DNA of 64,000 nucleotides from Spizellomyces punctatus DAOM BR117 (lineage: Eukaryota): NCBI GenBank assembly GCA_000182565.2, contig KQ257456.1. The stretch is one strand, 5' to 3'. Made by a program: the position numbers and the translations under genes. Below are positions 8,365 to 54,787 of the stretch, one piece after another (within the stretch, counting starts at the first letter, position 1; each line of letters begins with the position of its first letter). The notes beneath the pieces were generated by a model, which saw only the letters and a program-made list of their open reading frames with translations, had not been told where the DNA came from and made no database searches.

Positions 8365-10788
<2,424 letters not shown>

Positions 10789-22026: not shown

Positions 22027-22505
22027 ACATGTTTATGGTTTGAGATTTTGGAGCGTAAATAAAACGGTGTACAAAGCAGAAGGGCGGTTTTTTGTTGAGA
22101 ATAATTTATCGATACCCGATTAGCGATTAGGCTTGTCTTTCTTAGCACATAGTTTTTTGTTGTCTTTATTCCCGCCTGTAAGAATGCCTTAGATGTAGTT
22201 TAGGTGTACTTAAAGTTCTTAATGTATTTATTTATTATCATGTCGTAAAGCGGGCTATACGCAGAGAGTCTTCTGGTGCTTGCCAATGGTTGGCATATCT
22301 TTATTCATTATGGCTCCATAATCCTCATAATAAACACCGGATGCACATTGCGATCAAATAGGAGATTAGTGAAAACCAAGTACAAAAAAAAAAAGGCACG
22401 GTGCCAAAACGTAGACGGAGTCAGGGGCAATGCTACGTACACATGCCGCCAAGAGTGTAGGCAGCAACAATATCTCAAAAAAAAACTTCGTTTGCAGTAT
22501 TCCAA

Positions 22506-22590
22506 CGCACCCTGTGAGATTCGAACTCACAACACGGCTTTCGAGACTGAACTTTTGGCCCAACCTCTTAACCGCTTCCGACAAAGGTGC
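22506..22590 (-). ncRNA. tRNA-Ser-like degenerate element (solo member of the tRNA-like repeat family)
   Basis: Minus strand reads GCACCTTTGTCGGAAGCGGTTAAG...GTGAGTTCGAATCTCACAGGGTGCG: acceptor stem, A/B boxes and long variable region. Flanked by the same linker sequence as the arrays at 32 kb and 52 kb. Confidence 0.75.
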
Positions 22591-23177
22591 TACACAAAAT
22601 CCTCCGGTGAGCATATATATAGATTTTTTCCAGTATAAACACTCGGACAAGCAGTACCTATACACAGAAGAAAAATAGCGATATGGGGAATTCATGTTTT
22701 AATAGTAACACACATGTATCGCTCATGAGTCTACATACACTCAACAAGAGATTGTATATCATGTTCAAAATACCATGGGGAGAATACCCAGGGTCAACGT
22801 TTCGCCAGGGAGTGTAGGCAGGGTGATAGTATGAACACTGCCTACAGTACACAGCTGCATCTCACATCTGGAGATTACGAAACGCGACTCCCTGTTTGGC
22901 GGCTGGCGGCGACAACTCCCTTGCCAATTCAACGGGCCCAACACATAAGGCAACTTTTTCATCTCCTCACGGCTCTCAAGTTCTATTGCACTTTACCATC
23001 TTTGCATTCCCCATGTTTACTATGAGATTCTAATTCACAAGACTGCGACAGTTGCAATATCAAGTTAAGGAACAAAGTGCTGTCCGATACCAGTTGCAAG
23101 TGATCTGGACCCTGCCATTGGCAGTGCTTCTTACCTTGCGTCTGTGGCTTCTTGCTGACACTGCCTTTGCGCTTGCG

Positions 23178-31459: not shown

Positions 31460-31968
31460 TCATCTTCGAGCTCTCCGCCGAAACACCCACACAACACTCC
31501 CGATAACAGCACACCATAACAAGACGCTTCCGACGATGATTCCTGCTACGGCGCCTGTGGTAAGTCGTGATTCTGTGGTAGATTCCATGGTTGCCGTTGG
31601 GGTTTGGGTTAGGCTGGATGTACGAGTTCCGGTTGGTGTGGATGAGGTTGTTCTGGTTGAGGTGAATATTGGTATGGATGTACCGCCTGTACATGTTGGT
31701 GTGCATGGTGGTTCGGTTGTAAAGTTGCTTAAGGGGATGGTACTTGTCCGATGTCTATGTGTCCACCAATTTTCTTCAATTGGTTGCATGGAGTACCGTT
31801 ATTTTCTTCATGTGAGAATGATGGTGGAAGGGGGAGAGGCTTGAAGTGTTGCGTCATGTTCTCACCAATGTGGTGTTGGCCACGACAGGTTAAAGTAGTT
31901 GTGGGTTGCGCTTGGCTGAAAGACAAAGGGAAAGAAAGGAACATGACACGGTTATTGGGTATTTTCAT
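31460..31968 (-). CDS. Possible small Thr-rich single-pass membrane protein; exon structure unresolved
   Basis: Thr/Ser-rich stalk followed by LTTGAVAGIIVGSVLLWCAVIGSVVWVFRRRARR (TM plus basic stop-transfer). Confidence 0.5.
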
Positions 31969-32109: not shown

Positions 32110-33270
32110 ATTGGTGTGAGATATCCCTAGGACCTTGCCTGTTCGGCAGTGTTCTTACTAGAAAACGAGATATGATTGACTCATAGGCTAGATTTTGTAT
32201 AGCACCTGTATCGGAGCGGTCAAGGTGCTGGACTGGAAAGTCCAGTTTCGAGAGCCGCGTGAATTCGAATCTCACAGGGTGCGTCTTCAATCATTTCCTG
32301 TTGCTTTTTTGCTGGGGGTTATTCTCAAGCGTTAAGAATCTCCTTTTCAATCTTGTTGCAAATCTCATTCTTGCATACGAGATATTGTCCCATCCCTGCC
32401 TGCACTCTTGGCGGCGTGTTTTTACGTAGGAGTCACTTGTATACTGGATGTCCGGCCGTGTTCCCACTGAAAAGAGATAATGTTACCATTGGTCACATTT
32501 AGTGTAGCACCTAAGGGATGAACAAGCCGATACTGGTTGTACGAGATATTGTTACATCATCCTGCCTACGCTCTTGGCACGTAGGTGCCCGTCCGGCCGT
32601 GTTCAGACTGAAAAGAGATATGGTTTTGCCATTGCTTATATTCGGTGTAGCACCTTTGTCGGAGCGCTTAAGGAATGGTCCAGAAGTCCAGTTTCGAAAG
32701 CTGTGTGAGTTCAGATCTCACAGGGTGTATTGGCGGCTTCCTACAATCACGTTTTGCTTGTGGGTTATTGAAACCGTTAAGCATCACCTTTTCATGTTGC
32801 GAATCTCATTGTAGCATATGAGATATTGTCCCATCGTCCTGTCTACACTCTTCGTGGCGTGTGTTGCCCGTCCGACAGTGTTCATACTGAGAAAGATGTA
32901 TCTATTCGCTCGCGTTGACTTCCGAAAAGCACCTTTGTCGGAAGCGGCTAAGGAGTTGAACTACTGTAAAAATCCAGTTTCTCACAGGGTGCGTGTCCTG
33001 TCTCGAATAGACTTTTTGCTTGTGGGTTATTCTCAAGCGTTGAGAACTTCCTTTTCAATATTCTTGCGAATCTCATTGTTGCATACGAGATCATCCTGCC
33101 CACACTTTTGGCTGTTTAATGTCTTGCTACCTAGTGTGAAAAGGAACACTTGCGCAAACAAGCCCAGTATTACCGGCAATGTTCATACTGAAAAAGACGT
33201 ATGCAGTTGCTCACCGCTGCACTTTCTGTAACACCTCAGTCGGAGCGGTCTAAGGAGCTGGCTGCGAAAC
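32110..33270 (+). repeat. Tandem array 1 of tRNA-Ser-like/linker units (heads at 32202, 32507 truncated, 32650, 32929, 33231 truncated)
   Basis: Repeated GCACCT..GTCGGAGCGGT.AAGG...TCTCACAGGGTG heads and a conserved linker (TTTTGCTTGTGGGTTATT...ATCTCATT...GCATACGAGA...CCTGCC..CACTCTTGGC...GTGTTCATACTGAAAAG), period ~280-305 bp. Confidence 0.9.
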
Positions 33271-33658
33271 AGATTATTGTCCATGACGATAAATTCTTTA
33301 GAGGTCCAATGCAGAGAGGGCCCACTCGACAAGACTCTAAAATGTATCAAACGCGCATGTCATCCAAGACGCCAAAAAACTGTTTACATCCAACTGCGCA
33401 AAAATTGGAATATCACAACCTATCCATTTCCGCACATCCTATTCAACATACGCAGCCAAAACCATGCTATACTTCTAGTTACTCAAATATGCTATACCTT
33501 CTCATTGCATCCCAATCTAAAACATAATTACAAAACTCTTGATGCATTCATATATACCCTACCCGTCCAAACCCATATGTCTTTCAGAAGACCGAACCAC
33601 CATTCAAGGCAAATTGATATGCCGGTACATAGAAAGGAAGAAAGATTGGAGTATTCAT

Positions 33659-33731
33659 ACCCCCGTAGTGTAATGGAGATCACGTTGGACTTCTAATCCA
33701 AAGATTGCGGGTTCGAGTCCCGCCGGGGGTG
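33659..33731 (+). tRNA. tRNA-Arg(UCU)
   Basis: Acceptor ACCCCCG/CGGGGGT, anticodon arm TTGGA-CTTCTAA-TCCAA, T arm GCGGG-TTCGAGT-CCCGC, discriminator G, downstream T7 terminator. Confidence 0.93.
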
Positions 33732-34011
33732 TCTGCCAAGTATTTCCAAAAGTTTTTTTGGGGGGTATGCTTTGTATCAGAAAGTGCTCTCACATGCTCA
33801 AGGATAGGAATCTATATTCGCACACTATATAGCATGGGTCGAGTATGAATGTTAGCTCCATTGGGTTTTGGATGTTGGTCATTAGGGTGTCCCCCAGCCA
33901 GGGACATTCAAAAAGCACTTCGAACATCCTTTGCTGCCATTTTTCATTCATAATCAAAAACCAAGAAGAAATCAAAAAACTATATGCAAATTACAGTAAA
34001 TGCATCAGCCA

Positions 34012-36534
34012 TTACGACAAACCCTCAAACCCGTCAACAACCTCCAAAACCCTTTTTTTACAAACCGGTTTCGTCAAATAATCATTCATACCCACCTCAA
34101 ACGCCCGCGAAATTTGGTCTTGTCGTGCATTTCCACTTAACCCCACAATCGGAACCCTTTTGCAATCTTTTTGTTCACGTTCACGTTGACGAATTTCCAT
34201 TGTACATTCCAATCCTCCCATCCCAGGCATGACTATATCCATAAACACCAAATCGGCTTCCTTATAAACCTCTAATGCTTCAATTCCATTCGACGCAAGC
34301 AAGACCCGGTAAAAAGGCGCCAAGAACCTGTACATGATTTTCTGGTTAAGAATGTTATCTTCTACGACCAACACTGTTTGAATCGAACGAGGGGTATGCA
34401 GGAGGGGTTGTGGCGGTGGAGGTGGTGTGCATTCAGCAGGCGGGCCAGAGAATGTAAACGAAAAGCTACTACCAGCGTGTTTGGTAGACGAGACGGAAAT
34501 GGTTCCGCCCATCAGTTCCACCATGCCTTTGGAGAGGTACAGCCCAAGACCTGAGCCGCCGTAGGTGTCCGGGTGGGTACTAGTCGGTTGAGCAAACCGT
34601 TGAAACAACATGGCAAGTTCCGGTTCTGTTAGGCCGATGCCAGTGTCTTGGACTGTGACGCGGTAGGTGATGGAAGTGGGTGTACGGGAGATGAGGAAGA
34701 GGGAGAGGGTGATGCTGCCTCTTTGGGTGAATTTTATAGCGTTGGCCATGAGATTGATGACGATTTGCGAGAGACGGTGAGGGTCGCCGGTGATGGGGAG
34801 AGAGGAGATGGAGAGGTTAACACGGAGGTCGAGGCCTTGTCGAGTTGCTTGCGCTTCAAACATTTTTGCAACATCTGAAAGCGTTGTTTTTGGGTCAAAG
34901 GGAATAGCGCGGAGAACCAGTTTGCCGAGTTCTAGTTTGGATATATTAAGGACGTCGTCTGTGATGATTTTTTGGTGCGCGACGCATTTGGAGATGGCGT
35001 CGATCGAGTCTTGATCGAGGTCCAGCTGGTGTTGAAGAGTGCGCACATCGTCGAGGGCCAACGGGTTTTTGGCGAGCGTGGTGCGCCGCACTTGAAGGCC
35101 CATTTCAAGGAGCTCTACGTTGCCGCTGATGCCGTTGAGCGGGTTACGGAGTTCATGACATAAGCTGTCGATCCATTGATCTTGGTCCTTTTTGTAGCGT
35201 TCGGCTTCTTCGGCGCGATGGCGCTGGTGCTTTTCAGCGGCATTTCGTGCCTCTAGGCGATCCCTTTCGAGGACTTTGAGAGCGGAAATGTCGAGAATAG
35301 TATGAACGTAGCCGCGGAGGTTCCCGCTTTCGTCACGGTTGGCGGCCGTTTGACCTGCGACCCATACAATGGATCCATCCGCGTGGATAAAGCGATACTC
35401 GTGGTTCCCGGTATCAATGTCAGCGCAAGTGTCGCAGGGGGAAAAGGGCCATGTGGAGAGATCCTTCCGGTCCTCGGGATGAACAGCGTCGACCCATCCA
35501 TTAATGCGAATCTCTGTTCGCGTTCGTCCAACAATTTCGCAGAAGCGGTTATTGATAAAGTAATCGTCCTCATCTCCAAATGCCGTGCCATAAACACCTA
35601 CTGGGAGAATGGACAAGAGAGTCCGATATTGGTCCCGTTCGCGACAGAGGGCTTCTTGAGCATGGTCCGAGAGGAGCTTTAGGGAATTATGGAGGGCTGC
35701 TTCGGCGGCTTTGCGGCGTTCAATCTCATTCTCGAGAGCTTTGGCCTTTTGTTGGAGCTGGGCCACCATGAGGGCCTGGTCGTCGGGTTTATCATGAAGA
35801 TCTGCGTAGCCTTCCGAGGGTGTGACTTTTGAATGGGTATGGCACACCTTGTGAAAGACGTCGCGATGGGACTGGTCGCGGAAATTGTTAAGATTATAAC
35901 CGCAGAGCAGCGTAAACGAGACGAGGTTCTGCAAGCCGTTCCAGAGTTGCTCGAGTTCCACTGCCAATTGATAGTCGCCGCGGGAGGCGAGAATATCTAC
36001 AATCTCTCCATACACATAGACGCGACCATGAAATTGGCGAGACAGACGGCGGGCCAATGTCCCGACAAAGTCGTCGAACTTTGCTGCAGAGATTTGCTTT
36101 TGTTCGCGTTGTTCAAGGACGCCTAGGATTTCATGAGCGTCCAGCAGTGTCAATTGACCACGTCGCTTTCTAGCCTCCAAATCCAAGCCCCTCGCCTGCA
36201 ATCTGTGTTCAATGGCTTCCAGGTGCGATTTTGTGGCAATAATGACAGCGGCTTCACGGGCTATGAGAGCGGGCGCCACGAATCCGACAATGACATTGAA
36301 CAAAAATTCTTCAGTGTCGTAAAACTGGACAATGTGATCATGGTCTTTACAGGCCGAGAGCTTTTGGATGCCTATGGCATCCTCATAGGCCGGTAAACTT
36401 TCGTATTCTGATGATCCTACCGAAGAGGCATCGGAGACTGTGTCCTCGTTTGCCGTGATTGCTTCCGCTCTGACGGGTCGAGCAGTTACAGGGGGAAGGG
36501 CAAAGACAGGCAATGCGTTTTGGCTCTGTGTCAT
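34012..36534 (-). CDS. Intronless hybrid histidine kinase: MEDS sensory domain, PAS, HisKA, HATPase, receiver
   Basis: MEDS-like DHIVQFYD...VYGEIVDIL...LEQLWN...LLCGY. PAS GWVDAVHPEDR...EYRFIHADGSIVWV. H-box LCHELRNPLNG, N-box NLMANAIKFT, G-boxes DTGIG and GGSGLGL. Receiver VLVVEDN...FMDIVMPGMGG...YLTKP. Confidence 0.95.
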   Translation of the reverse strand: MTQSQNALPVFALPPVTARPVRAEAITANEDTVSDASSVGSSEYESLPAYEDAIGIQKLSACKDHDHIVQFYDTEEFLFNVIVGFVAPALIAREAAVIIATKSHLEAIEHRLQARGLDLEARKRRGQLTLLDAHEILGVLEQREQKQISAAKFDDFVGTLARRLSRQFHGRVYVYGEIVDILASRGDYQLAVELEQLWNGLQNLVSFTLLCGYNLNNFRDQSHRDVFHKVCHTHSKVTPSEGYADLHDKPDDQALMVAQLQQKAKALENEIERRKAAEAALHNSLKLLSDHAQEALCRERDQYRTLLSILPVGVYGTAFGDEDDYFINNRFCEIVGRTRTEIRINGWVDAVHPEDRKDLSTWPFSPCDTCADIDTGNHEYRFIHADGSIVWVAGQTAANRDESGNLRGYVHTILDISALKVLERDRLEARNAAEKHQRHRAEEAERYKKDQDQWIDSLCHELRNPLNGISGNVELLEMGLQVRRTTLAKNPLALDDVRTLQHQLDLDQDSIDAISKCVAHQKIITDDVLNISKLELGKLVLRAIPFDPKTTLSDVAKMFEAQATRQGLDLRVNLSISSLPITGDPHRLSQIVINLMANAIKFTQRGSITLSLFLISRTPTSITYRVTVQDTGIGLTEPELAMLFQRFAQPTSTHPDTYGGSGLGLYLSKGMVELMGGTISVSSTKHAGSSFSFTFSGPPAECTPPPPPQPLLHTPRSIQTVLVVEDNILNQKIMYRFLAPFYRVLLASNGIEALEVYKEADLVFMDIVMPGMGGLECTMEIRQREREQKDCKRVPIVGLSGNARQDQISRAFEVGMNDYLTKPVCKKRVLEVVDGFEGLS

Positions 36535-37609
36535 GGCTATCGTCGAGAAAGAATCACTGGCGATTTGAACGCCGCGTTCAAATGAGCAAAGAGACCAAAC
36601 GGATGCTTGTTGTTTTTCTTTACAAGTATCTCGCCAGGACCGAACTCGCGTGTTCCATTCCAATTATTGAACAAAAAGGGCGAAGTTTCGCCGAATGTCC
36701 GGAGGTTCCTCGCGCTTGCGACTATTTCAAATGTTGGCGTACACTCTTGTGATATGGATAGTAAACCTGTAAACCACAATAGCATTTGTAAGCCAGTTTC
36801 ATTTCCAAACACTAAAAATAGAGTACCCTCGCTCCAAAAACGAGCCCATCCTTCAGAACCGAACCCAAGAAGCACCACTGCCACAACGACAATCCACTAG
36901 ACATGCGTCTGGACATTCGCTTCGCACGGCACATGCACAGTCAATGTGCCAGGACATTCCTCCATTTGACCCTCAAACAAAAAGGAAGCCCTCCGCGGTC
37001 AGCTCTTGTCCAGACGCTTGCGTTTGTCCTTGCTTCTCAACAAGACCCATTGCTGATAAAGAGTCCCTTCCGTTCAAAGTCCCCCAACGCCCATATCCTG
37101 AATCCATGAAATGAATAGCTTACCAAGATCCGTTTTATATTCGTATCTCAAAAAAAAAAAAAAGTACCCCCGAAACTATCCGAAAACAAAAACAGAAAAG
37201 TGTGAAAAAGCCGGTGGGACAGAAAAGATGACATCATTTCCCAAAGTGCCATGACCATGGTTAGACAACTGCATTTGTCAGCATATAGTAGCGTCTGAGT
37301 AAGCGAACTCGTATTTACTGGACAAGTGGTTTGCAAACCCGTATAATTGACAATGTCCAATGTACCCGTTTGATCCATATGCCTTCCCTTGATCTGTCAG
37401 ATTTCTCTCGTCGTCGGATTGTGATGCATTACTGTCTGATAATCTCTCCACAGCTGGGAACGTCTTCGCTTCAATCATTGGCCTCAGTGCTGTGAATGGG
37501 TGAAATACGTGCGATACAAGTAACAGTAAGCAGAGTGTGAAATGGAATGTGTATCATTACGACAGAAAGTGTGTGTGTCAAAGGCAAACATTTATGCTCA
37601 CATTGGAAG

Positions 37610-39045
37610 GATATAAGAACAAATCGTCTACTTTGCGCAGCAATTCTAGTCCCATCCCTCCAATCATTAATAACGATTATCGTTCTGACAGTATGTCATA
37701 AGACACGAGCAGTCTATTGGGCAAACAAACAGTAATTGGAGGTGGGAGTGTCTAGTACTTACTCGTATCCACAAGTCATCTCACACGCATCGCATCATCA
37801 TCTCTAGGTTTAAGCTTGGTAGCTGAACCGTAGCATCATTATTGTGACAAACATCTACCGTGACAAACACCGATTGTTAGGAGTTGCAAATGCCTTGAAA
37901 GGACCCATTGAGGATAATTACTAAATATTCAACAGTGGTACTATTCCAAACGATATTGAAGAGTTGAAAATTCATATATTAAGATTGCTACAATACATCC
38001 AATAAATCTATTCTATCCAATGTAATGCATGGGAAGCGGCCGGTCTCTTCGAGTCGAGAATCTAGAGGAATATCAGATGAGAACGACCAAGTGTGTAAAG
38101 AGTAATGCGACCTTACCCGAGTCGGGGTAGCAATGATCTGTGATTAAATCTTCTTCGTCTTGTCCGAGTCTTGAGAAATCTAGAGGAATATGAGATCGGA
38201 CTGTCGAGCAAGTGTGAAAAGAGCAACGCGACCTTACCCGAGTCGGGGGCAGCAATAATCTGTGATTGAATCTTCGTCTTGTCCGAGTCTTGATCCGTCG
38301 CGTCGCAGAAAAAGGTACACTGCTACCGTCACAGAAAGATAGCCGCTCCATCGCTGAAGGAAGTTCCCTCGCGTAACTCTCGCGAAAGGGAGACTGGCCC
38401 CGGAGGTAACTGCATGCAGCCACGCGCTGAGAGAGGGTGGTACACTGCTATCGCCACAGACAGATAGCAGCTCCATCGCTGAAGGAAGTTCCCTCGCGTA
38501 ACTCTCGCGAAATGGGGACTGGCCCCGGAGGTAACTGCATGCAGCCACGCGCTGAGAGAGGGTGGACACTGCTATCGCCACAGACAGATAGCAGCTCCAT
38601 CGCTGAAGGAAGTTCCCTCGCGTAACTCTCGCGAAATGGGGACTGGCCCCGGAGGTAACTGCATACAGCCACGCGCTGAGAGAGGACCACTGCTACCGTC
38701 ACAGACAGATAGCAGCTGCCAAGAGGGATGCCGAACTCGTTGTAAAGAAACGCGTTGGGGGAAAGCGAACACGCACGGTTTATAAAGGACTCGAAGCCAG
38801 GGGTAATGAGCTCTTGAGCAGCCAATCAAATACGCGCATGCGCCATGGCTTATCCAAGGTTGATTAGACCACATATGTACTAATGACTGACATCGACCAA
38901 CACTTACCGTGCGGAGGTCACCATATCCAATGGCAAATGACCAACTTGCTCAAGATGCAATGACAATGGGCATTGTGCTCATACTAGCCTACTCCTATCT
39001 AACCCAATCGGAGTGTCAACTTCTGTACTAAAAGTCATGGTGTTA
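37610..39045 (-). repeat. Hairpin-array element copy 1 (internal ~124-bp x3 tandem array at 38320-38718)
   Basis: Flanks align with 39263-41005 and 49372-50330. Shares the CTGCTACCGTCACAGACAGATAGCAG core and the TATA/CCAAT/GCGCATGCGC block. Confidence 0.85.
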
Positions 39046-39262
39046 GGAACAGCACACAGCGGTTAACACAGCGGTTTGAATTTAATATATTTGTACTGTA
39101 ATTTCTTCCATTGTGGGTTCGTTGTGGTTGCATTCATTCAATGCACTATTTCATAGCAATTGCTAAAGCGGCATGGCCATGCCATCAAACCCGGTTTAAC
39201 GCGTGCGCTGCTGTGTTTCTGCTGTGTACCGGTTATCTGTCCATTCACATACTCGATACTAG

Positions 39263-41005
39263 TTGTAAGAACAAATCGTCTACTTTACACAGGCAATTCT
39301 AGTCCCATCCCTCCAATCATAAATAACGAATATCGTGCTGACAGTACGTCATATGACACGAGCAGTCTATTGGGCAAACAAACAGGAATCGGAGCATACA
39401 ACTAGTACCGACTATTTCATCAGACAGATAACGGGAACACAGCAGAAACACTTGTCCGATGAAAAACTCGATACTAGTTATATAACGGTGGGAGTGTCTA
39501 GTACGTACTCGTATCCCCAAGTCACATCACACGCATCGTATGATCATCTCCGATTGTTGAGTTGCAAACATATTCAACTTGGGTACTATTCCAAACGACA
39601 TTTAAGAGTTGAGAATTCATATATTAAGATATTTATAATACATCCATTTCTATCTAATGTACAAGAACTCCTGTGGGCGCGGGCCGGTCTCTTGATATTG
39701 GGCTGATCCTGGATAATCTAATGGAATATGAGATCAAACTGTCGGTCAAGTGTGTAAAGAGCAACAATGCGACCTTACCCGAGTCGAGGAGCAAATCTGT
39801 GATTCGTCTTGTGCACTCGAGTCTTGAGCATCTAGAGAAATGACAAAAGGACATCGGCGGATCCCTCAAAAAGTAGAACAAAAAGTGGAACTGCTCCAGC
39901 TCGGCGCAAAAGTGGGACAGTCCGGCGCAAAAGTGGAGCTGCTACCGCCACAGACAGATAGCAGCTCAGCGCAAAAGTGGGACTGTCCGGCGCAAAAGTG
40001 GAGCTGGCAAGCAGTTCGGCGCAAAATGGGACCCGGCGCAAAAAGTGGAACTGCTCCAGCTCGGCGCAAAAGTGGGACAGTCCGGCGCAAAAGTGGAGCT
40101 GAAAAGCAGTTCGGCGCAAAAAGTGGAACTGCTCCAGCTCGGCGCAAAAGTGGGACTGTCCGGCGCAAAAGTGGAGCTGAAAAGCAGTTCGGCGCAAAAA
40201 GTGGAACTGCTCCAGCTCGGCGCAAAAGTGGGACAGTCCGGCGCAAAAGTGGAGCTGCTACCGCCACAGACAGATAGCAGCTCGGCGCAAAAGTGGGACT
40301 GTCCGGCGCAAAAGTGGAGCTGAAAAGCAGTTCGGCGCAAAAAGTGGAACTGCTCCAGCTCGGCGCAAAAGTGGGACAGTCCGGCGCAAAAGTGGAGCTG
40401 CTACCGCCACAGACAGATAGCAGCTCGGCGCAAAAGTGGAGCTGAAAAGCAGTTCGGCGCAAAAAGTGGAACTGCTCCAGCTCGGCGCAAAAGTGGGACT
40501 GTCCGGCGCAAAAGTGGAGCTGAAAAGCAGTTCGGCGCAAAATGGGATCCGGCGCAAAAAGTGGACCACTGCTACCGTCACAGACAGATAGCAGCTGCCA
40601 GTGGACCACTGCTACCGTCACAGACAGATAGCAGCTGTCAAGAGGGATGCCGAAACCGATGTGAAGAAACGCGTTGGGGGGAACGCGGACGGGCACGGTT
40701 TATGAAGGCCAGAAGCTAGGGGTAAATAGGTGCGCAGCCAGGGGCAGCCAATCAAACACGCGCATGCGCCATGGCTTTTCCAAGATTGATTAGACCATTT
40801 ATGGACTAATGGTTTTGATTAGACCATATATGTACTGTTATTCCCCCACCACCAACTTCAGAAAACAAGGCGGAAATCATCACCAATTCCAATGGTGATG
40901 ACCAACTTGCTCAATATGCAAGGAAAGTGGGCATTGGGTTCATGATGGCCCACTCCTATTCAACGCAATCTGACGTCAACTCCTATACTCAAAGTCATGT
41001 TGTAA
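39263..41005 (-). repeat. Hairpin-array element copy 2 (internal modular array ~39880-40637)
   Basis: Begins AAGAACAAATCGTCTACTT as in copy 1. Array of GGCGCAAAAGTGG linkers separating palindromic modules. Confidence 0.85.
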
Positions 41006-46307: not shown

Positions 46308-46940
46308 CGGTAGCAGTACTCCACTTTTTGCGGGATTCGTCCCTACCACTTGAGCTGCTATCTGTCTGTGACGGTAGCAGTGCTCCACTTTTTGCGGGAT
46401 TCGTCCCTACCACTTGAGCTGCTATCTGTCTGTGACGGTATCAGTGCTCCACTTTGTGCGAGATCCGTCCCTACCACTTGAGCTACTATCTGTCTGTGGC
46501 GGTAGTAGTGCTCCACTCTTTGCAGGATCCGTCCCTACCACTTGAGCTACTATGCGGTGATCCACTCTTTGCGGGATCCGTCCCTACCACTTGAGCTGCT
46601 ATCTGTCTGTGGCGGTAGTAGTGCTCCACTGTGTGCGAGATCCGTTCCTACCACTTGACCTACTATGCGGTGATCCACTCTTTGCGGGATCCGTCCCTAC
46701 CACTTGAGCTGCTATCTGTCTGTGGCGGTAGTAGTGCTCCACTTTGTGCGGGATCCGTTCCTACCACTTGAGCTGCTATGCAGTGCTCCACTTTTTGAGG
46801 GATCCGTCCATACCACTTGAGCTACTATGCGGTGATCCACTCTTGGCGGGATCCGTCCCTACCACTTGAGCTACTATGCTGGTGATCCACTGTTTGCGGG
46901 ATCGGTCCCCACTTGGAGCTGCTATCTGTCTGTGGCGGTT
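46308..46940 (+). repeat. Hairpin tandem array of the same family, opposite orientation
   Basis: Repeats of CCACTTT.TGCGGGAT.CGTCCCTACCACTTGAGCTGCTATCTGTCTGTG(A/G)CGGTAG, the reverse complement of the core in copies 1-3. Confidence 0.85.
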
Positions 46941-49371: not shown

Positions 49372-50330
49372 TGAATCGGGGGCAGCAAATCTGTGATTGA
49401 ATCTTCTTCGTCTTGCGCAAGTCTTGAGAATCTAGAGAAAATCAGATGGGCACGAGCAAGTGCCTAAAGAGGAGCGCGTACTTACCCGAGTCGAGCGCAG
49501 CAAATCTGTAATTCAACCTTCTTCGTCTTGTGCGAGTTTTGAGAATCTAGAGAAATGATAGAAGGAAAGTGGAGTGGCGGCGGATCCCTCAGAAAGTGAA
49601 CTGCTCCAGCTCGCACAGAAGTGGGACCGATCCGGCGCAGAGTGGAGCTGGCAAGCAGTTCGGCGCAAAGTGGGATCGGTCCGGCGCAGAAGTGGAGCTG
49701 CTACCGCCACAGACAGATAGCAGCTCGGCGCAGAAGTGGGACCGATCCGGCGCAAAAAGTGGAACTGCTCCAGCTCGGCGCAGAAGTGGGATCGGTCCGG
49801 CGCAGAAGTGGAGCTGCCACCGTCACAGACATGTGAACATAGCAGCTCGGCGCAGAAGTGGGACCGATCCGGCGCAGAGTGGAGCTGGCAAGCAGTTCGG
49901 CGCAAAGTGGGATCGGTCCGGCGCAGAAGTGGAGCTGCTACCGCCACAGACAGATAGCAGCTCGGCGCAGAAGTGGGACCGATCCGGCGCAAAAAGTGGA
50001 ACTGCTCCAGCTCGGCGCAGAAGTGGGATCGGTCCGGCGCAGAAGTGGAGCTGCTACCGTCACAGACATGTGAACATAGCAGCTCGGCGCAGAAGTGGGA
50101 CCGATCCGGCGCAGAGTGGAGCTGGCAAGCAGTTCCAAAAGTGGACCACTGCTACCGTCACAGACAGATAGCAGCTGCCAAGAGGGATGCCGAACTCGAT
50201 GTGAAGAAAGGCGCGGAACGCGGACGCGCACGGTTTATAAAGGCCAGAAAGCCAGGGGTCAAAGGGGTAATAATGCAATCAAATACGCGCATGCGCCGTG
50301 GCTTATCCAAAGTTCATTAGACCATATACA
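49372..50330 (-). repeat. Hairpin-array element copy 3 (internal array ~49595-50177)
   Basis: GGCGCAGAAGTGG linkers with GGACCGATCC/GGATCGGTCC and GAGCTGCTA...TAGCAGCTC modules. Same TATA (50234-50241) and GCGCATGCGC (50287-50296) block and the same intron-like modules. Confidence 0.85.
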
Positions 50331-51529
50331 GTTGCAGTGTGCCATAAATGGGGTTAATGGTGGTGGAGTGGTATGTACAGTACTAATGGTCATTCCACCC
50401 GCAGTGAGAGCCCACGACATGCAGCAACGTAAGTCCTGGCGAACAAGGGCAGACCAAAGAATGGTTTGCAGATGACGATCAATGCCATGGCCAGCAACGT
50501 GCTGTAGCGTCCAGTCTGGAAGGACAGACGAACAACGACCTGTATTCAGAGACAAAGCTACAGACAAAAGATAGTCGCCGTGTGCAAACATACTAAATTC
50601 TCTGCAACGACTTGCAGTTACTGACCTCTAGTGAACAAACTCATGGGAATCATTGTTTTCTGATCGCTAGCGGGCGGTCTGTCTTCTTGAATTCCATCTC
50701 CACTTCGCGAAGTTCGCATGTTGCGCATTCGACCATTTTTGCAGAGATCGATCGCATTTGAGACGGAGCATTGAGCGATAGCACCCTCTTGTGTCTATCG
50801 CCTTACGCTTGTCGGACGGTTTGTCTATATGCAGTCTGTGCCAGTATGGACCTCTGGGCATGCTGCAGACGCTCCTTCTCTTCTGCCCATGGTGTTAAGA
50901 GAAAGTTTCCTAACGGTCCCTCCCATAGGTGATGAGCGTATTTTGCACGGGCATCAACTATTGGGCATAACTATATTAGTGTGATCAACTACGGTCTTTT
51001 TCCAGCCAGAATTTCTTGAAAACACATGGGATATGCCCAAAGACTGACAAGCCCCGTCATCCTCCTCAGCCGCATGACATCCGCGTGTATTTACGTTCTC
51101 AACCGCCATGTCACATAACCTCGTTTACTTGTACTCACGTAAATGCCCGGAATCAGGGTGGGTCTACCCAATGGCTAACCTTGGCAATGTGGTTTACCAT
51201 CATTCTGAGGAGCCTGAGGAGGACGTCAGGATTGCAGATATTAAACAACGATCAGAAATAAGTGCAAAGAGGCGACCAACCATACACTGGACGTACTCTA
51301 ACGCTGTAGTATTCTCCTTCCCTCTTGATCTGTGCGACTATGTAACAATCGGGATTTATCACTTTTTGAGGCCGCTCAAACGTGGTCCTCAGATATTTTC
51401 AGTTTTGCAAGTCCATATAACAGCCACGACTCCCATACCTAAAGAAGCAAACATTTTGAATTCAGAGAGGCGTTGTGTATGGCCAGTTGAAACTGACGTT
51501 GGATGGATGGGTTGGGGGAGAAGAAGAGA

Positions 51530-52840
51530 TTGTTAAGGGTAAAAGACGAGCTGTGTGGTTAGTATAGCACCTTTGTCGGAGCGGTTAAGGAGTTCGTCTT
51601 AAAGTCCAGTCTCCGAAAGCCGTGTGAGTTTGAATCTCACGGGGTGCGTTCAGAACATGCGCCTCGACTTTTTGCTTGTGAGGTATCGAACGCGTTAAGA
51701 GTCTCTTTTTGAATCTTGTTGCGACTCTCATTGTTCCATACGAGATGATCCTGCCCGCCCCGCACTCTTGGCCGGCGGGTATATCTAGGCTTGCCCGTGC
51801 GTGCCCGACAGCATTAATTATGATTTGAAGTAAACGAATGTTTCACATTGTGTAGCACCTTTGTCCGAAGGGGTTAAGGAGTTGGGCTGAAAGTCCAGCC
51901 TCCTTAGCCGCGTGAGTTCGAAACTCACAGAGTGCATAAACGGTGGTCTTAATGCAATCTTTTTGCTTGTGGGGTATACTCAAGCTTTCAGAACTCTCTT
52001 TTCCATCTTGTTGCGATCCTCATTGTTGCATACGAGACAATGTCTCATCATCCTGCCTACACTCTTGGTGGCGTGCGTACATCGGTTTGCCCTTGCCTTT
52101 CGGGCAGTTCATACTAAAACAGATAAAGCTTCGCCGCATTTTAAATAGCACCTTTGTCGGAAGCGGTGAAGAAGTTGGTCTAAAAGTCCAATTTCCAAAG
52201 CCGCGTGAGTTCGAATCTCACAGGGTGCTTTGTTGACAGTGCCTTCAGAACTTTTTGCTTTTTTGGGTATTCTCAAGCGTGCAGAATCCTCTTTACAATC
52301 TTGTGGCGAATCTCATTGTCGCATACGAGATAATCCTGCCTGCGCTGACTCTTGGCGGCGTGTATACGTACCTACGTATGGCTTGCCTCTGCCTGTCGGG
52401 CCGTTCTCATATCTGAATATTTTCAATAGCATCTTTGTCGGAAGCGGTCCTTAAGCTGGGCTAGTTTCGAAAGCCGCGTGAGAATTTCACAGGGTGCATA
52501 ATAGTCTGGCTGATATTATCATCCTGCCTGCACTCTTGGAGGCGTGTGTACGTAGCCTTGCCCCGGCTGTGTTCATGCTAAAAGAGCTACAAGGTTGCGT
52601 ACTGCTCATTTTCTGTGCAGCACCTTTGTCGGAAGCAGTTAGGGAGTTGGTCTGGAAGTCCAATTTCGAAAGCCGCGTGAGTTCGAATCTCACAGGGTGC
52701 CCTGAGACAAACTCGCTGAACATTTTTCTGCTTTTTGGGAATTTTCAAGCCTGCAGAATTCTCTTTTTCAATCTTGTTGCGAGATGTCATTGTTGCATAC
52801 GAAATCATGTCCTGCCTACACCTCTTGGCGCAACAAACAA
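51530..52840 (+). repeat. Tandem array 2 of tRNA-Ser-like/linker units (heads at 51567, 51855, 52148, 52429, 52620)
   Basis: Five GCA(C/T)CTTTGTC...TCAC(A/G)G(G/A)GTGC heads with spacings 288, 293, 281 and 191 bp, a conserved linker, and unique trailers. Confidence 0.92.
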
Positions 52841-53623
52841 GCGACGTGCACTTTAAGGGTCTGTTTGTGATTTGCCATCTGTTCCTACATTTCCTGAAAC
52901 AACTCAGATACATGTCAATGATATATCTACTAGTAGCAGTTGGATCCAAATGGGAACGCCAAGCGAATAAAAATCATGTGTGTGTCTATACCATCCATGT
53001 CTATTCTCTCTGTCTATTATCAAAAATCCATGCCAAGAGACAGAATGAACAATAATTTACCCGTCCCTTGTTTTAGAAATGCGCGGATGATTCACAAGAT
53101 TAAAGTTAAAGTTTCATATTATTTATAGAATATATTTAAGTATTTGGGATGTTTGTATGGGAATATTCCCATGGGGACAGACGAATAGCAACAGTAACGG
53201 ACTGCATGTTCATCTTACAAGTCTCTTTTGGCACGGTAGGTTGAAATTCATTTGGGAGGCATTTTCATTGGCTGGTCTTTTAGCAAAGGGTTAAATCAGG
53301 ACATGGGATCCTATGGATGTGTAATGGGAACTGCAGTTGGTTTTGACAAAAGTTTCTTTTTTTTGATGGGGACGGTCAGTTGGTGGTATTACGGATAAAA
53401 AGAAGGTTTTTGTTGATGGGACAAGTCATGCCGATCACCTAGTGGGTTTGCAGTTGTGCCGACAGTCGGAGAACAAAAAGACGATGGTGGAAAGTGTTGA
53501 CGTTTTTTTCAACTTTTTTTAAACTTTCTTTTTTTTTTTGGCGAGTAGGACAATTAGGGTCGTCGGTTTGCTTTTCAAGAAAGAACATTGCAAAGTTCAA
53601 CTCAGGTAGTTGCGCGACACACC

Positions 53624-54787
53624 ATGCGTCTGTTTGCTGTCTCGCCACAGCGCTTTCGTCCTCGGTATGGGTACCTCGCCGCCATCACAACCACCGGCAT
53701 CCTCTTCCGGTCATGGCTGTACGCATTCATCGTCATTATGCACTGCTTCCTCACTTGGTCTCTCCGCATCGGATCCGTCAACTACGTCGGTACAAACAAT
53801 GACGGCTTCACCCTCGACTTGGAAGGACTCCCTCCTCCCCCCAACATTGATATCTCCGCCCTCATCTCAGCTCGCATCACTGCATCAAACACCTCGGCCT
53901 CGCCCGCTGATCGCCTTGAAGCCCGTCTGCATATCCAGCAAACAACCGAATCCCTCGCATGGGGCCCTCAAAACAATGACTCTTTCCTCATCCCTCCCAT
54001 CATTCACCAAGTTACGATCGGCATGTCCGGCCCACCGCCCCAAAAATGGCTAGACGCTTCCCAAGCCTGTCGGGCCATTCACCCAGATTACACCTTTATG
54101 ACCTGGAACGACGTCAATGCTCAAGAATTCATTGCCAAAGAATATCCGTGGTTCCTCGAGACTTGGCTCAACTATCCCTACACGATTCAGAAAGCCGATT
54201 CGATTCGATACCTGGCCCTTTACACCTATGGCGGCGCATACCTTGACATGGACCTCTACTGCAAACGGCCTCTAGATCCTCTCCGCAAACTCCCCTTTGT
54301 AACTCCCTCAGCCCACCCCGTCGGGCTCTCCAATTCCATCATCCTCTCCACCCCACACCACCCCTTTACGTCCATCCTCGTCCAAAACCTCCCCACATTC
54401 AACCACTACTTTTTTTCTTCGTACCCAACAGTCATGTTTTCAACGGGGTGCATGTACCTCTCCGCCTTGCACACACTCTACCCGCAGCGTTCCATTGATA
54501 CCAAAGTCCTCGGTGGGGAACGTAATCGAGTGAACGGCCGGGCAGAGACGCCATTGTTTACCCATCTTGGCGCCTCATCGTGGCATCAAGGCGATGCACA
54601 ATTGTTTGTCTTGATTGGACGGTGGATCAAGGAGACGCCTTTGGGTGCCTATGCCCTTCTTTTGGCACTTTCTGGCTTGCTCGTCGGAGTGTGGTGTGTA
54701 TACTCGCGGCGTAAAACCCAGGAATTCAAGGAGACGGTTGTCAGTGTGATGCTGGTTTCGGAAAAGGAAGCGAGTTGGGTGAATTAA
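53624..54787 (+). CDS. Glycosyltransferase family 32 (MIPC synthase Sur1/Csh1-like), intronless
   Basis: IPPIIHQ, YPYTIQKADSIRYLALYTYGGAYLDMD (DXD), HPF, VMFSTGCMYLS and GASSWH motifs. N- and C-terminal hydrophobic helices. Confidence 0.9.
   Translation: MRLFAVSPQRFRPRYGYLAAITTTGILFRSWLYAFIVIMHCFLTWSLRIGSVNYVGTNNDGFTLDLEGLPPPPNIDISALISARITASNTSASPADRLEARLHIQQTTESLAWGPQNNDSFLIPPIIHQVTIGMSGPPPQKWLDASQACRAIHPDYTFMTWNDVNAQEFIAKEYPWFLETWLNYPYTIQKADSIRYLALYTYGGAYLDMDLYCKRPLDPLRKLPFVTPSAHPVGLSNSIILSTPHHPFTSILVQNLPTFNHYFFSSYPTVMFSTGCMYLSALHTLYPQRSIDTKVLGGERNRVNGRAETPLFTHLGASSWHQGDAQLFVLIGRWIKETPLGAYALLLALSGLLVGVWCVYSRRKTQEFKETVVSVMLVSEKEASWVN

Follow-up and report, generated by a model that had tools for sequence, protein, structure and literature searches.

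Layout of the array and of its relatives in the window

The window, by which we mean the whole 64,000-nt stretch of contig KQ257456.1 of Spizellomyces punctatus DAOM BR117 that was analysed, includes genes for homeodomain, bromodomain, KA1-kinase and hybrid histidine-kinase proteins. It also contains a gene for a GT32 glycosyltransferase (53588–54787), whose closest named relatives, with 51–59 % identity, are from Thoreauomyces, Powellomyces, Geranomyces and Gaertneriomyces, genera that we take to belong to the chytrid order Spizellomycetales. A protein atlas had pointed to Ascomycota, and we follow the GT32 relatives in placing the host among these chytrids. Between positions 32111 and 33270, on the plus strand, there are five tandem tRNA-like units, recognised by alignment and by profile matches and designated A1 to A5 (array A). 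Three of them (A1, A3 and A4) contain a tRNA-like head, a unique trailer and a run of T, and the other two (A2 and A5) are truncated.

Unit A1 begins with a purine-rich upstream motif with a TATA-like end (32151–32173; column identity 0.58), a motif that is found in most units ca. 30–50 nt 5′ of the head. The head of A1 with its discriminator base (32202–32283) scores 24.7 bits against the Rfam tRNA model, below the gathering score of 29 bits, and is followed by a unique trailer of 21 nt (32284–32304), a Pol III terminator-like run of six T (32305–32310) and a conserved linker (32311–32440) composed of segments L1 and L2a/L2b. Unit A3 comprises a head with discriminator (32650–32729), a trailer of 22 nt (32730–32751), four T (32752–32755) and a linker (32756–32866). 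The corresponding parts of unit A4 are a head at 32929–32993, a trailer of 19 nt (32994–33012), five T (33013–33017) and a linker at 33018–33116. Each of these three trailers is situated immediately after the head and one discriminator base and starts with T, and about 110–130 nt of conserved linker are found 3′ of each T-run. Unit A2 is a remnant (32450–32579) in which the upstream part and the first ca. 10 nt of the head are followed by unrelated filler and by the 3′ part of the linker, and of A5 (33173–33267) there remain the upstream motif and a head cut off after its 5′ half, followed by unrelated DNA.

Much of this layout had been proposed in a preliminary description made from the sequence alone, and the coordinates and sequences that it gave for the three trailers of the array are all exact. 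The units that it considered truncated, at ca. 32507 and 33231, indeed gave only partial nhmmer matches (32450–32512 and 32539–32579 in the case of A2). The head at 32929, said to lack the variable arm and half of the B-box, belongs to A4, and the alignment shows that this head has lost the variable arm as well as the 5′ half of the T arm, which corresponds to the B-box region.

A genuine tRNA-Arg(TCT) gene (33659–33731, plus strand) is situated 390 bp downstream of the array and was the only sequence to pass the gathering threshold in an Rfam tRNA scan of the whole window, with 71.6 bits. It is followed by a T-initial trailer of 21 nt (33732–33752) and by a run of seven T, gene and flank together extending to position 33759. 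The combination of a T-initial trailer of ca. 20 nt and an oligo-T run occurs, then, in an ordinary Pol III gene of this genome as well, a control that consists of a single gene.

Positions 51501–52854 of the plus strand hold the same family in a second array (array B) of five units, B1 to B5, of which four are full and one (B4) is degenerate, with trailers at 51649–51668, 51937–51959, 52230–52251 and 52702–52722; the recurrence of the head and linker in an array at ca. 52 kb, also reported in the preliminary description, is thereby confirmed. A solo unit, designated C, lies on the minus strand (22380–22660) and consists of the upstream motif, a head (22590–22507), a trailer (22505–22486), a run of nine T and a linker from which L1 is deleted. 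A family profile made from the eight full units yielded 13 nhmmer matches in the 64-kb window, corresponding to the eight full units and five fragments, and all of them were confined to array A, array B and solo unit C. Since the full units match the family profile with E values from 1e-56 to 1e-80, their likeness goes beyond chance, and both the alignment and the profile matches support the notion that the units are tandem copies of a single family. Four of the 11 units are decayed, being either truncated or internally deleted. Additionally, differences of the type expected from paralogues were observed among the reads of both an RNA run and a DNA run, which implies that more copies of the family exist elsewhere in the genome. 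The open-access literature searched contained no account of such arrays in Spizellomyces or in other chytrids.

Conservation of heads, trailers and linkers

In intact units the head forms a class-II tRNA-like body of 80–84 nt. Rfam scans of small regions gave 31.0 bits for the head of B3 and 31.6 bits for that of B5, above the 29-bit threshold that A1 fails to reach, and there was no tRNA match at E ≤ 10 for the remaining heads in these scans. ARAGORN called just two heads, with anticodons gaa and aaa; the triplet in the anticodon loop varies from unit to unit, and there are mismatches in several of the anticodon stems. We rejected the possibility that these are functional tRNA genes because the heads score low on the tRNA model, the anticodon is not fixed and stem pairing is lost. 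Across the eight full units, column identity was 0.95 for the acceptor stem, 0.89 for the T arm with the B-box, 0.80 for the variable arm, 0.73 for the anticodon arm and 0.71 for the A-box region. The A-box and the B-box are Pol III promoter elements, and the parts retained are those that serve transcription and end-processing. A T-run of four to nine residues is situated 19–23 nt after the discriminator in all eight full units, and with the retained A-box and B-box regions upstream of it the layout by sequence is that of a type-2 Pol III gene.

The acceptor and T-arm pattern of the family heads is also that of a metagenomic eukaryotic tRNA-Leu(CAA), which makes a leucine tRNA their likely ancestor; no tRNA-Leu-derived family is described for this fungal group in the literature searched. 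When metagenome contigs were scanned once with a degenerate pattern of the T arm and acceptor, three loci matched, all of them ordinary tRNAs unrelated to the family. As far as can be judged from their sequences, the heads are derived from a tRNA and yet are not working tRNAs.

Sequence variation was not evenly distributed along the unit. As the preliminary description had anticipated, conservation is lowest in the trailer, with a column identity among the eight full units of 0.28 (bootstrap 0.24–0.34), a saturated value, versus 0.73 (0.68–0.78) for L1 and 0.62 for L2a; the columns of the trailer thus vary more than those of the linker. Mean identity over the 28 pairs of trailers is 0.49 (range 0.35–0.61), near the level of shuffled sequences (0.44 ± 0.065), and it also holds that no trailer is common to the two arrays. 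Nevertheless, trailer length was 19–23 nt in all eight full units, and seven of the eight trailers start with T (binomial p = 0.0008 at T = 0.28). The spacer that separates the upstream motif from the head, on the 5′ side, has a column identity of 0.34 and is nearly trailer-like, although the 10 nt directly 5′ of the head reach 0.57, versus 0.34 for the spacer further upstream. Expressed as Jukes-Cantor distances, divergence amounts to 2.3 for the trailer, 1.6 for the 5′ spacer and 0.33 for L1, that is, both inner flanks are ca. 5–7 times more diverged than the linker.

The preliminary description had explained the differences among trailers by their replacement or hypervariability. A special mechanism of this kind is not needed, because the 5′ spacer is about equally scrambled, the tRNA-Arg control has a trailer of the same format and the flanks of tRNA genes are known to diverge. 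Comparison of nine trailers with the rest of the family in a shuffle test gave lowest p values of 0.10 for the sense and 0.06 for the antisense orientation; the idea that the trailers are mosaics of unit sequence, suggested by 7–9-mers that they appear by eye to share with the linker, was rejected by this test (p ≥ 0.10 sense). A search of the 64-kb window for matches to the trailers or for sites complementary to them identified one match with four mismatches, at 9857 on the minus strand, with ca. 0.1 expected; this match falls within chance. The eight folded precursors had no trailer structure or hairpin in common.

On neither strand does the linker have a conserved fold (energies of −3.7 and −4.8 kcal/mol and one and zero compensatory pairs, respectively). 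We also discarded a structured RNA or a snoRNA in the linker, for which no Rfam family was found, the best being chance-level snoRNA matches of 13–16 bits. Between units there were 34 transitions and 22 transversions in the head, and 48 and 59, respectively, in the linker. Repeat-induced point mutation was rejected as a source of these changes because transitions are not dominant, C>T and G>A changes are not in excess and the host is not an ascomycete.

A tree of seven units, from which the trailer and the spacer were left out, was star-like, with end branches of 0.12–0.24 and a sole grouping of A1 with A3 (93/89); arrays A and B did not form separate clades. The absence of within-array clustering in this tree led us to reject concerted evolution or gene conversion as the process that holds head and linker alike. 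Of the birth-and-death turnover postulated in the preliminary description, the part that stands is the decay seen in the truncated and deleted units, whereas nothing in the star-like tree points to turnover or homogenisation still under way.

Antisense transcription across array A

A transcript contig of 738 nt is identical to the window, with positions 32536–33148 joined to 33215 onward. The 66 nt skipped at this joint (33149–33214) are bounded by CT..AC on the plus strand and, therefore, by GT..AG on the minus strand, which indicates that they are an intron and that a spliced Pol II transcript crosses units A3 to A5 in antisense. The run from which this contig originates is labelled as possibly DNA and behaves as a transcript assembly. 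We read it as such because its contig joints skip intron-like segments and are absent from the DNA run: ten joints skip 55–77 nt each, seven of them with GT..AG, two with CT..AC and one with TG..TA borders, and none of the ten is present in the DNA run.

In a 3′-tag RNA run, depth over array A was low, with 2.09 on the minus versus 0.73 on the plus strand; the first mate in this run is on the RNA's own strand, as seen with the minus-strand histidine-kinase gene (51 versus 0.15). The RNA data comprise this 3′-tag library and the transcript contigs, which are types of data that miss small Pol III RNAs. Downstream of the antisense transcript there is a minus-strand ORF (31460–31789) for a small, Ser/Thr-rich product with a hydrophobic stretch at its C-terminal end. 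A ChIP run whose target is not stated had a depth of 5–12 over the arrays.

Origin and possible roles of the family

We consider it probable, with some reserve, that the units belong to a family of Pol III pseudo-tRNA genes, old and lineage-specific, which descends from tRNA-Leu, was amplified in tandem and is decaying, and whose inner flanks are free of constraint and probably evolve faster because of transcription. An intact unit consists of the upstream motif, a short conserved start region, the tRNA-like body, a trailer of ca. 20 nt and a T4–T9 terminator; in the body, acceptor stem, A-box region and T arm/B-box are retained, and there is neither a stable anticodon arm nor a fixed anticodon. 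From this architecture we infer that Pol III would produce a precursor of ca. 110 nt, from which RNase P and RNase Z could release a non-decoding tRNA-like RNA, the trailer being set free as an oligo-U-tailed by-product. The arrays would have arisen when a segment of ca. 290 bp containing the gene and its flanks was duplicated in tandem; the copies would then have diverged independently, and several of them have since been reduced by the loss of parts. The trailer would then be an unconstrained, transcribed 3′ flank, saturated in the same way as the 5′ spacer. Its divergence would likely be caused by a lack of selection together with a faster, transcription-caused mutation of tRNA-gene flanks, while the untranscribed linker would have stayed near background divergence and the body would have retained its promoter and processing elements.

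Such a pattern has a precedent in active tRNA genes, whose inner flanks show, in the available text of Thornlow et al. 2018 (PMC6130373), a 3–4 fold excess of divergence and a 7–10 fold excess of mutation rate, ascribed there to transcription-associated mutagenesis. The excess of 5–7 times in the flanks of our units appears to be of the same order, and by analogy a body that is conserved amid scrambled inner flanks can be taken as the hallmark by which transcribed tRNA-type genes are known. The units resemble active tRNA genes, as portrayed in that text, in their conserved body, in their several-fold diverged inner flanks and in the poly-T after the trailer. In contrast, the bodies here are non-decoding pseudo-tRNAs with 60–91 % pairwise identity, arranged in tandem with a shared linker. 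The literature searched, as far as its available text goes, did not include a report of fast tRNA-gene flanks in fungi.

Certain features fit the pseudo-tRNA family less well. With a neutral linker, the degree to which the anticodon arm (0.73) and the variable arm (0.80) have been preserved in a non-decoding RNA comes as a surprise; with a constrained one, the linker's function lacks an account. The better-kept 10 nt immediately 5′ of the head fit an unconstrained spacer between motifs better than a purely transcription-driven mutation, and a neutral flank need not have a length as narrow as 19–23 nt or start with T in seven of eight cases. Finally, the occurrence of three loci in 30 kb, together with the further paralogues implied by the reads, hints at mobility beyond simple tandem duplication.

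We regard it as unlikely that the units derive from a mobile element driven by a Pol III promoter, be it a TRIM of the Helenus type (TRIMp3) or an element akin to a SINE, whose insertions would have been concatenated or recombined into the arrays. The presence of the family at three loci and on both strands, the additional copies implied by the reads and the star-like tree, which fits an amplification burst, are all consistent with an element of this type. The available text of Kojima 2024 (PMC10886601) describes Helenus/TRIMp3 as miniature LTR retrotransposons that have a tRNA-like sequence in the LTR and form LTR-internal-LTR-internal arrays, and that among fungi are given only for Basidiomycota, in the Pucciniales and some Agaricomycetes. 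Our units share with them the non-functional tRNA-like heads with A and B boxes, a fungal host and a small size (ca. 290 bp, near the 311 bp of the shortest Helenus in that text). A TGG-initial stretch right after L2a and a purine tract of the upstream motif can be pointed to at the positions that a PBS and a polypurine tract would occupy. However, arrays A and B and solo unit C start and stop within the putative internal region and not at LTR ends, and no copy is bounded by LTRs. The putative 5′ end of the LTR would fall in the 5′ spacer (identity 0.34), its TG..CA termini are not kept, and the PBS-like stretch is not matched by the 3′ end of tRNA-Arg, the sole tRNA compared. Target-site duplications are likewise absent at the edges of the arrays and of the solo unit, although this argument is weak given that the edges are not element ends. 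Additionally, the trailer is inside the unit, so the copies of a mobile element should all carry the same one, but every trailer differs. Fungal SINEs such as AfuSINE2 from Aspergillus fumigatus also have, according to the available text on them (PMC5063351), a head that is related to tRNA and contains a Pol III promoter, and they likewise occur as multiple dispersed copies. Unlike these, our units have a terminator ca. 20 nt after the head and no co-transcribed body, A-rich or repeat tail or target-site duplications, and they are mostly in tandem.

The trailers might alternatively be the product, with the head acting as promoter and RNase Z handle for a guide of ca. 20–25 nt with a 5′-U, destined for a Dicer-independent effector of the Argonaute type, and the array acting as a library of guides. 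The constant length of 19–23 nt in the eight full units, the T at the start of seven trailers and the uniqueness of every trailer agree with such a role, as does a head in which precisely the parts required for transcription and end-processing persist and the anticodon drifts. Likewise, tRNA 3′ trailers enter Argonaute in other eukaryotes (PMC4203973, PMC10191329, in their available text). But the trailer of the genuine tRNA-Arg gene has the same format, the 5′ spacer varies nearly as much, the trailers share no structure and have, in the 64 kb, no complementary site beyond chance, and four of 11 units are decayed, so that a guide library seems to us very improbable. We give hardly any credence to the wider proposal that an early-diverging fungus would keep Dicer-independent Pol III tRNA-guide cassettes with diversity maintained in a slot of 19–23 nt. 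It is also highly unlikely, in our opinion, that the conserved parts act as DNA or as part of a long RNA, be it as a TFIIIC/Pol III chromatin boundary or within an antisense Pol II transcript, which could then be a long 5′ leader or lncRNA upstream of the minus-strand ORF at 31460–31789. The 738-nt spliced contig, the excess of minus-strand reads over array A and the conservation of a linker that has no RNA fold speak for a role of this sort, but the splice sites occur in a single unit and are not family-wide, the transcript evidence comes from array A, and read depths are low.

Compared with other short RNAs and gene arrangements, the predicted trailer RNA matches the definition of a tRF-1, in that it would start at the RNase Z cut and finish with oligo-U (PMC4203973, PMC6765225, PMC10191329). 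In the available text of those papers, tRF-1s arise as by-products of genuine tRNA genes, and arrays of dedicated pseudo-tRNA carriers are not described. A tRNA-type promoter or handle placed before a short RNA is also found in the dicistronic tRNA-5S rRNA genes of Yarrowia (PMC2566860) and in the tRNA-like/miRNA genes of gammaherpesviruses (PMC4337559). In these, according to the portions available, the downstream RNA is structured and conserved (5S rRNA and pre-miRNA hairpins, respectively), whereas here it would be 19–23 nt long, unstructured and unconserved. The head-to-tail disposition of tRNA-type genes with shared spacers recalls the tandem tRNA arrays of Entamoeba (PMC2888827); those arrays, as the available text presents them, contain functional tRNAs in near-identical units, in contrast to the diverged and decaying pseudo-tRNAs of S. 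punctatus.

Were the trailers guides after all, they would represent a new route to guide RNAs. If the units are instead a decaying family of pseudo-tRNA genes, as we favour, the arrays would be nothing out of the ordinary, namely a repeat family derived from a tRNA, and one that would leave chytrid genomes with an inflated or confused tRNA annotation. It would add a tRNA-Leu-derived family to a fungal group for which the literature searched describes none. Finally, if the cause proposed here for the fast inner flanks is true, their position beside a slow linker could serve for the study of Pol III transcription-linked mutation in a fungus.

Sequences around the family units

A short GC-rich inverted repeat that resembles a hairpin, recognized by eye at 32135–32149 and at equivalent sites upstream of other units, directly precedes the purine-rich upstream motif of the tRNA-like units. 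The sequence of its arms, likewise compared by eye, varies from unit to unit, and their complementarity is kept in several of them. Solo unit C, the single minus-strand copy of the family in the window (22380–22660), showed a mismatch to the ChIP DNA run at one linker position, 22444: 29 of the 39 reads carried a C in place of T there, a return to the family consensus. This C is either a strain allele or comes from reads of a perfect paralogue.

Minisatellite blocks between the arrays

Three large minisatellite blocks, with periods of 21–237 bp, are situated between tRNA-like arrays A and B (38059–40637, 46308–46909 and 49607–50135). Their motifs are related to each other and occur on opposite strands, the 46-kb block being in reverse orientation with respect to those at 40 and 50 kb. 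Comparison of the blocks with Rfam identified no family, except for one miRNA match at chance level.

Minus-strand genes and antisense transcription over array A

A hybrid histidine kinase gene (34012–36663, minus strand) codes for an N-terminal MEDS domain followed by PAS, HisKA, HATPase and receiver domains; oligo-T loose ends in the 3′-tag RNA run point to a poly(A) site for this gene near 33930. On the same strand, a 109-aa ORF (31460–31789) codes for a Ser/Thr/Pro-rich product with a C-terminal hydrophobic stretch and then basic residues, a make-up suggestive of a small protein with a single membrane pass or of the cell-wall-sensor type. Units A3–A5 of array A are crossed in antisense by a spliced Pol II transcript (region 32536–33340), with a 66-nt GT..AG intron at 33149–33214 on the minus strand. 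Upstream of the 109-aa ORF, this transcript may be a lncRNA or form a long leader.
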